A DNA stretch of 32,000 bases, taken from contig NZ_QLIR01000003.1 in NCBI RefSeq assembly GCF_003428155.1, positions 30,001 through 62,000 on the forward strand, given 5' to 3'. This DNA comes from Fastidiosibacter lacustris (GTDB taxonomy: Bacteria; Pseudomonadota; Gammaproteobacteria; Francisellales; Francisellaceae). Shown here in pieces: positions 28,656-28,841 of this stretch. The translations under genes were made by a program, and so were the position numbers. The notes under the pieces are model-generated. The model was not told where the DNA came from. It searched no databases and was given only the letters and a program-made list of their open reading frames with translations. Within the stretch, counting starts at the first letter, position 1. Each line of letters opens with the position of its first letter.

Positions 28656-28841
28656 TTAAATCGTTGATCCGTTTGTGCAGGTATTGTTTGCTGCATAAAA
28701 TGATAACTCCTTTTTGTTTTTTTTATTCATTATATTCTGCATACTGACCATAGGAGCAGGAGCAGGAGCAGGAGCAGGAGCAGGAGCAGGAGCAGGAGCA
28801 GGAGCAGGAGCAGGAGCAGGAGCAGGAGCAGGAGCATACAT
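28656..28841 (-). CDS. Candidate small ORF encoding MY-(AP)14-MVSMQNIMNKKNKKELSFYAANNTCTNGSTI; coding status unproven
   Basis: The frame is open through the hexamer repeat, upstream of and co-oriented with the ATP-grasp gene. No convincing SD precedes either ATG 28841 or TTG 28865. Confidence 0.25.
   Translation of the reverse strand: MYAPAPAPAPAPAPAPAPAPAPAPAPAPAPMVSMQNIMNKKNKKELSFYAANNTCTNGSTI
28753..28836. repeat. Perfect 14-copy hexanucleotide tandem repeat (GGAGCA on plus, GCTCCT-phase on minus)
   Basis: Direct count: 84 nt with no interruption. Confidence 0.97.

Follow-up and report, generated by a model that had tools for sequence, protein, structure and literature searches.

A perfect GGAGCA microsatellite, most likely non-coding, upstream of a partly decayed ATP-grasp operon in Fastidiosibacter lacustris

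Main finding

The (GGAGCA)14 array of Fastidiosibacter lacustris is a genuine slippage-prone microsatellite, it is most likely non-coding, and it belongs to a kind of element that is already known, the upstream or 5'-UTR simple-sequence repeat (SSR). It lies in the window, by which we mean the whole 32,000-nt stretch of contig NZ_QLIR01000003.1 that was analysed. The best explanation we can offer, held tentatively and with a little less than even confidence, is that of a non-coding, slippage-prone array in the 5' region of an operon that has partly decayed, where it would exert a near-constant anti-Shine-Dalgarno (anti-SD) damping and where its length would be close to neutral. Nothing shows that the array acts as a genetic switch, and it is otherwise an ordinary bacterial microsatellite without demonstrated function.

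The array and its surroundings

Tandem Repeats Finder describes 28752-28836 as a tract of period 6 whose 14.2 copies match at 100%, free of indels. Both this result and the sequence itself confirm what an earlier note on this DNA had claimed, a perfect (GGAGCA)14 at 28753-28836; an additional A at 28752 is in register and makes the tract (AGGAGC)14.2. Its length and purity are those expected of a tract prone to slippage. The 12-mer GGAGCAGGAGCA, with at most one mismatch, occurs 13 times in the window, each time within the array, and in dinucleotide-preserving shuffles it has a mean of 0.05 matches, with 13 reached in 0 of 100. Besides the array, in the window and in the second strain described below, a survey of 467 kb (the window plus the fetched loci) found no further perfect repeat that has at least 4 copies of a 4-9-nt unit. 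The check for other copies of the hexamer array proposed in the earlier note was thus made over these 467 kb, and none was found beyond these two loci. The features of the locus are collected in Table 1.

Table 1. Features of the array locus and of the operon downstream of it (window positions)
Feature	Position	Strand	Description or basis
Perfect hexanucleotide microsatellite	28752..28836	(-) (GCTCCT)14; (+) (GGAGCA)14	Tandem Repeats Finder and allele comparison
Open reading frame (ORF) reading the array as (Ala-Pro)14	28656..28865	(-)	Mechanical ORF; 69 aa from TTG, 61 aa from ATG 28845; judged not a real gene
Promoter candidate P1, best sigma-70-like	28914..28942	(-)	TTAACC, 17-nt spacer, TATAAT; 10/12 matches; predicted
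P2, perfect TATAAT -10 hexamer	28729..28734	(-)	Just downstream of the array; read from the sequence, unreported by the promoter scan
Homopolymer A8	28717..28724	(-)	A7 in the second strain; between the TATAAT hexamer and the SD
AAGGAG Shine-Dalgarno (SD)	28707..28712	(-)	40 nt past the array; the relic ORF's ATG follows after 10 nt
32-aa ORF (MQQTIPAQTDQRFNLDKHRSEFFYDYSPFITA)	28598..28696	(-)	N-terminal relic of a 225-248-aa first gene
Further promoter-like site	28519..28491	(-)	9/12 matches
ATP-grasp gene, L-amino-acid-ligase type, intact	27274..28461	(-)	Family and structure matches
EamA-like multi-pass membrane protein, putative exporter	26394..27272	(-)	Begins 1 nt past the ATP-grasp stop, an arrangement shared with relatives

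The array was said to lie upstream of the ATP-grasp operon within a divergent intergenic region, and this is correct: the region measures 639 bp and is bounded on its other side by mtnN, on the plus strand from 29101. Also in place, on the minus strand at 28712..28707, is the AAGGAG that had been described some 40 nt downstream of the array. The array lies between this SD and the predicted promoter P1. If P1 is used, the array would begin about 70 nt into the transcribed leader, behind roughly 70 nt of AT-rich sequence, and the scan reported no terminator-like sites between P1 and the operon genes. P2 comes without an acceptable -35 element, which would coincide with the last repeat unit; if P2 is used, the array would stand upstream of the promoter and outside the leader. 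If transcription started at P2 or at the further promoter-like site, the array could lie upstream of the promoter or have no bearing on the ATP-grasp gene. Relatives were uninformative about the position of the promoter, as their upstream regions are not alignable and the scans gave no guidance.

Length polymorphism between two strains

The MtnN protein, whose gene adjoins the array, was found on one other public contig, JAMBMW010000007.1, and exact-protein look-ups together with cluster membership place the window's proteins on these two contigs only. A metagenome scan for the junction of array and flank returned no further alleles; other 'Ca. Nebulobacter' strains are known so far from their 16S. 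The second contig (L001) belongs to 'Candidatus Nebulobacter yamunensis', which lives as an obligate endosymbiont in the ciliate Euplotes and shares 99.38% ANI with the cultivable F. lacustris (G+C 36.3%), and the published genome comparison of the pair reports almost no differences between them (PMC9837558). The supplementary tables of that paper make no mention of the array locus.

At the same site and between identical flanks, the endosymbiont carries 10 copies of the unit, against 14 in the window. Across 6926 aligned nt, the two sequences differ by 32 SNPs (a local SNP divergence of 0.46%) and three indels. The first indel comprises the four repeat units of the array; the second is the homopolymer at 28717-28724, which is T8 in the window and T7 in the endosymbiont (A8 and A7 on the operon strand); and the third is a single nucleotide in a T7/T8 tract near 31840. 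Since all three fall in simple repeats, they carry the signature of slippage. The variability in length that the earlier note had predicted is observed, as 14 versus 10 copies between two close strains separated by 32 SNPs in 6.9 kb, in a comparison of two genomes. Because the tract is long and pure in both, the array predates the split of the two strains. The endosymbiont also has one SNP in the -35 hexamer of P1.

The locus offers a ready typing marker that separates Fastidiosibacter and 'Ca. Nebulobacter' strains, in a bacterium that stands between free-living and endosymbiotic life. It resembles in this respect the tandem repeats employed as VNTR/MLVA markers, which discriminate strains; these denote a typing use, not a mechanism.

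A separate observation concerns the third indel. The T7 tract at 31840-31846 of the window (T8 in the endosymbiont) precedes, by about 36-42 nt, the start of a minus-strand ORF at 31514-31804, which encodes 96 aa without a Pfam match.

The operon downstream has lost its first gene

In relatives from Logan contigs, Vibrio cholerae, Shewanella and metagenomes, the ATP-grasp/exporter pair is preceded by a first gene of 225-248 aa that begins MFDINKHRYNYFYNY and has a weak match to the Pfam family HalD (halogenase/hydroxylase family, E = 0.043). The 32-aa ORF of the window aligns with the N-terminus of the full-length first gene in four of these loci (L003, L004, L008 and L041), with 7 invariant columns (RFNLDKHRSEFFYDY). 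When a hidden Markov model (HMM) of the first-gene family was searched against all 1221 six-frame segments of the window, this ORF was the top match (E = 0.029; the next best had 1.6), and it holds the syntenic position of the first gene. These three observations together imply that the first gene has been lost in the lineage of the window. By its sequence, we take the 32-aa ORF to be the relic of a lost, oxygenase-like first gene, which corrects the annotation of the locus. The relic ORF ends 137 nt before the ATP-grasp start, a distance that leaves no direct translational coupling between the two.

A different reading of the 32-aa ORF, as a RiPP precursor, was dropped since the peptide aligns to the N-terminus of a 225-248-aa enzyme and since the neighbouring ATP-grasp protein has its matches among L-amino-acid ligases (BL00235, BacD, DdaF).

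The two remaining genes look functional in their sequence. Among the matches of the ATP-grasp protein are PRK07206/DdaF-type models and BL00235 and BacD, two L-amino-acid ligases with solved structures, and the protein belongs to a small family, with 29 proteins at E <= 1e-10 among 5.8 billion. It keeps 42 of the 42 columns that are invariant in a 14-sequence alignment of this family. Between the window and the endosymbiont, the ATP-grasp gene has 4 synonymous and 2 nonsynonymous differences and the EamA-like gene 3 and 0, which brings the pair to 7 synonymous and 2 nonsynonymous differences. No SSR was found upstream of the operon in any relative recovered from genomes, metagenomes and Logan/ENA contigs.

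The first gene has also decayed elsewhere. A locus designated L002 carries an independent 47-aa truncation (2845-2988), and in L007 (~2965-3117) a degenerate internal remnant is all that is left. Counting the window, three lineages have independently truncated or degraded the gene, and in each the ATP-grasp and exporter genes remain intact. The stub at the N-terminus, with its start signals, is kept in the lineage of the window and the endosymbiont and in L002.

The intact three-gene operon of V. cholerae (L004-L006; BOFS01000003.1 and Logan contigs) has a phage-type integrase and remnants of IS4 about 2 kb away, a neighbourhood that suggests travel on a genomic island.

Predicted pairing of the array with the Shine-Dalgarno sequence

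In our preferred explanation, copy number would change through slipped-strand mispairing, and the array would be transcribed in the leader as (GCUCCU)n. The CUCCU cores would then serve as multiple anti-SD sites in cis, occluding the relic ORF's AAGGAG and, with less strength and at longer range, the UAGGAU of the ATP-grasp gene. The resulting damping is predicted to be roughly constant, saturating at about 6 copies, so that 10- and 14-copy alleles would behave almost alike.

The GCUCCU unit is complementary to the AGGAG(U) of the downstream SD, and partition-function models of the leader with varied copy number give an estimate of what this could mean for SD accessibility. In these models, the mean unpaired probability of the AAGGAG falls from 0.81 without the array to 0.47 with 4 copies and to 0.18-0.20 with 6-25 copies, and about 80% of the predicted pairing of the AAGGAG goes to the array. 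The real unit is predicted to occlude the SD best among the 10 rotation classes of hexamers with the same composition, the next best leaving 0.33 unpaired; 14 copies of the permuted unit CTTCCG are predicted to leave the SD 91% unpaired. When the model is extended to the start of the ATP-grasp gene, the UAGGAU site is predicted to be unpaired at 0.69, 0.50, 0.44 and 0.39 with 0, 10, 14 and 20 copies, respectively.

The pairing is diffuse in the models. It is dispersed over many equivalent registers, it is missing from the centroid structure, and the frequency of the minimum-free-energy structure is near 0. Compared with shuffles, the leader fold has no extra stability in the window (z = 0.14) or in the endosymbiont (z = 0.32), so the models do not point to a stable, specific structure. 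Neither conservation nor covariation accompanies the pairing, as the array is missing in all operon relatives.

The anti-SD proposal of the earlier note is upheld in part. The GCUCCU units are indeed predicted to pair with the AAGGAG, but this SD serves the 32-aa relic and not the ATP-grasp gene. In the models, copy number matters between 0 and about 6 copies, but the effect is saturated below the observed alleles; and the suggested fold of the minus-strand leader recovers array-SD pairing in the ensemble, but in a structure no stabler than shuffles. The models support anti-SD pairing as a constant damping of translation that the array may exert. With occlusion saturating at about 6 copies, the models predict equivalent behaviour for 10 and 14 copies and would account for no functional difference between these alleles. 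For the same reason, we consider the length polymorphism most likely nearly neutral and not an adaptive on/off switch. The anti-SD reading, if true, would provide a clean natural case of an SSR that acts by RNA pairing with a ribosome-binding site and not through reading frame or promoter spacing.

A contingency locus as the main alternative

The main alternative is an adaptive contingency locus, in which selection keeps the array long and slippage provides heritable, reversible and graded control of the ligase and exporter. Leader length or the dosage of anti-SD sites could mediate such control; so could spacing, should P2, the TATAAT immediately behind the array, turn out to be the true promoter. 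We regard this alternative as unlikely. Consistent with it, the array is long and pure at both 10 and 14 copies, it is the sole such SSR in the 467 kb examined, a second variable tract lies 28 nt away, and the modelled accessibility of the ATP-grasp ribosome-binding site given above changes gradually with copy number. The switching mode known from frame-shifting SSRs, which takes a unit that is not a multiple of 3, is absent here: the 6-nt unit cannot shift the reading frame, and the frame preservation that had been claimed on this ground holds, with every allele in frame. The lack of any SSR in the relatives of the operon argues against a contingency locus, as does the saturation of the main predicted effect below the observed copy numbers. 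The 129-191 pseudogenes predicted in the genome are compatible with relaxed selection (PMC9837558). A further point against a contingency locus is the nature of the genes. Cytoplasmic ligases and exporters are, to our knowledge, not the usual surface-structure targets of contingency loci.

Experimentally studied precedents exist for control by upstream repeats (PMC7302503, PMC2651432, PMC4679880), and comparing them with the array clarifies what is shared and what is not. In Moraxella catarrhalis, uspA2 has AGAT(n) in its 5' UTR, with 6-23 copies depending on the strain and expression that is graded and not on/off (Attia & Hansen 2006, as cited in PMC4679880 and PMC7302503). Going by these citing accounts, the two arrays have in common a perfect short tandem repeat with strain-dependent copy number, located in the window between the predicted promoter and the start codon. 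The uspA2 unit, as described there, is a 4-nt AT-rich one, its gene encodes a surface protein under host selection, and its effect on expression has been measured; the array of the window, in contrast, has a 6-nt GC-rich, anti-SD-like unit and belongs to the operon of a cytoplasmic ligase and an exporter.

The hmw1A and hmw2A genes of Haemophilus influenzae carry 13-38 copies of a 7-bp repeat about 100 bp upstream that modulate expression (Dawid et al. 1999, as summarised in PMC2651432). In that summary they resemble the array in having a short unit upstream of the coding region and a copy number that depends on the strain, and differ from it in the 7-bp unit and in lying in the promoter region between alternative start sites. 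As for the hexanucleotide SSRs of H. influenzae, the judgement was that they do not mediate phase variation.

Intergenic TAACTGA heptamer repeats of marine Beggiatoaceae and cyanobacteria, with 169 sets genome-wide, likewise consist of short tandem units near the start and SD, have been proposed to play a translational role, and show whole-unit indels between close strains (PMC4679880). They differ from the array in showing hardly any SD or anti-SD character and in their position right at the ribosome-binding site (PMC4679880), whereas the array is a single locus in the sequence examined, with an SD-complementary unit 40 nt upstream. We found no literature specific to this hexamer or to tandem anti-SD repeats.

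Is the array coding?

A coding role, which we rate as quite unlikely, would turn the array into an (Ala-Pro)n stretch of variable length within a small protein, of 61-69 aa in the window and 72 aa in the endosymbiont, with the A-tract switching between forms; in an alternative version, the array would be the leftover of an (Ala-Pro)n-containing N-terminal extension of the lost first gene. The frame across the array is open, the unit length is a multiple of 3, and in the endosymbiont a 72-aa gene is called over the array, fused to the relic peptide. Codon usage is also favourable, as GCT and CCT are common in this genome, with shares of 31% among Ala and 40% among Pro codons; less-preferred codons are used in the Leu-Leu, Ser-Cys, Glu-Gln and Ser-Arg frames, and the plus-strand Gly-Ala frame also uses common ones.

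Arrays of the same unit are found in IMG/VR, where at least 120 contigs, including giant-virus bins, contain a perfect (GGAGCA) array of at least 8 copies (L086-L205). Several of these arrays are located at contig ends, where they probably break assemblies. Among the matches listed, copy numbers range from 8 to 22 with a median of 10, the longest spanning ORF reads (Ala-Pro)n in 71 of 120, and the median spanning ORF measures 1278 nt. The common GCT and CCT codons, together with the mostly coding use of the array elsewhere, provide a hint of a coding origin. A shared origin with the viral arrays was considered and rejected, as the flanks have no meaningful similarity.

Several lines of evidence stand against a coding role. 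Neither candidate start of the ORF is preceded by an SD, Pfam returns nothing and NCBIfam low-complexity matches only, and the non-repeat part of the product has no homologue among 5.8 billion proteins. Whether this ORF runs on in frame into the 32-aa relic ORF depends on the A8/A7 difference: the two are fused in the endosymbiont and out of frame in the window, with the result that the C-terminal 20-40 residues of the product are wholly different between the two strains. The full-length homologues of the first gene begin MFDINKHRY, without an extension. The stop-to-stop frame, at about 216 nt, is short; the (GCTCCT)n linkers of IMG/VR share the unit exactly and come close in copy number (among the matches listed, median 10 and maximum 22) but sit in ORFs with a median of about 1.3 kb among these matches, while the frame in the window has no initiation signals and is unconserved between strains. 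The Ala-Pro spacer protein that the earlier note had raised as a possibility accordingly finds no support, and the 72-aa gene called in the endosymbiont is probably spurious, a second correction to annotation at this locus.

Less probable readings

More ambitious is the idea of a selected, slippage-tuned tandem anti-SD 'sponge' in the leader, whose copy number, together with the A-tract, would heritably and reversibly set the output of dipeptide ligase and exporter. We hold this to be very doubtful. Its interest is that, if true, the endosymbiont (10 copies, A7) and its free-living twin (14 copies, A8) would exhibit a rare functional difference between near-indistinguishable genomes.

Highly improbable is a function of the plus strand, on which an (AGGAGC)14 RNA antisense to the operon leader would titrate CsrA or ribosomes with 14 GGA or SD-like motifs. 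The 14 tandem GGA motifs favour it by resemblance only. No promoter-like site was found upstream of the array in 28300-28752, the Rfam match over the array is of low complexity and far below threshold (32 vs 60 bits), with no family above it, and the fold is no better than shuffles (z = 0.49). The plus strand shows neither a promoter of its own nor a family match nor a stable fold of the kind that marks CsrB/RsmZ-type sponge RNAs, and a role for the SD-like motifs noted earlier on this strand is not supported.

Scarcely credible, finally, is an assembly or sequencing artefact: repeat arrays sometimes collapse or expand in assemblies, with no specific support for this found here, and an independent assembly, that of the endosymbiont, shows it in the same place, identically flanked, which rules this reading out.

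Other observations in the window

An inverted repeat at 28988-29036 (palindrome 28995-29029), with arms of 14-16 bp, lies between the divergent promoters of mtnN and the operon. The 9 nt at its centre, TTACTGTGA on the minus strand, are exactly reverse-complemented in the endosymbiont (TCACAGTAA, L001 ~3895-3929), so that the loop is inverted, and 3 SNPs fall in or just beyond one arm. This is the most divergent spot in the 6.9-kb comparison of these 99.4%-ANI strains, and the palindrome could be an operator or a template-switch hotspot.

A G9 homopolymer at 1515-1523 marks the junction of the overlapping ORFs 186-1562 and 1510-2184, both with NHL repeats. The two look like one NHL-repeat gene frameshifted in the poly-G tract, whether through phase variation, as a pseudogene or by sequencing error. 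Just downstream of this split gene, at 2190-5357, a 1055-aa protein with Peptidase_M66 and TagA domains, of the StcE/TagA-like mucinase type, is by its domain content a possible host-interaction factor in this protist-associated bacterium.
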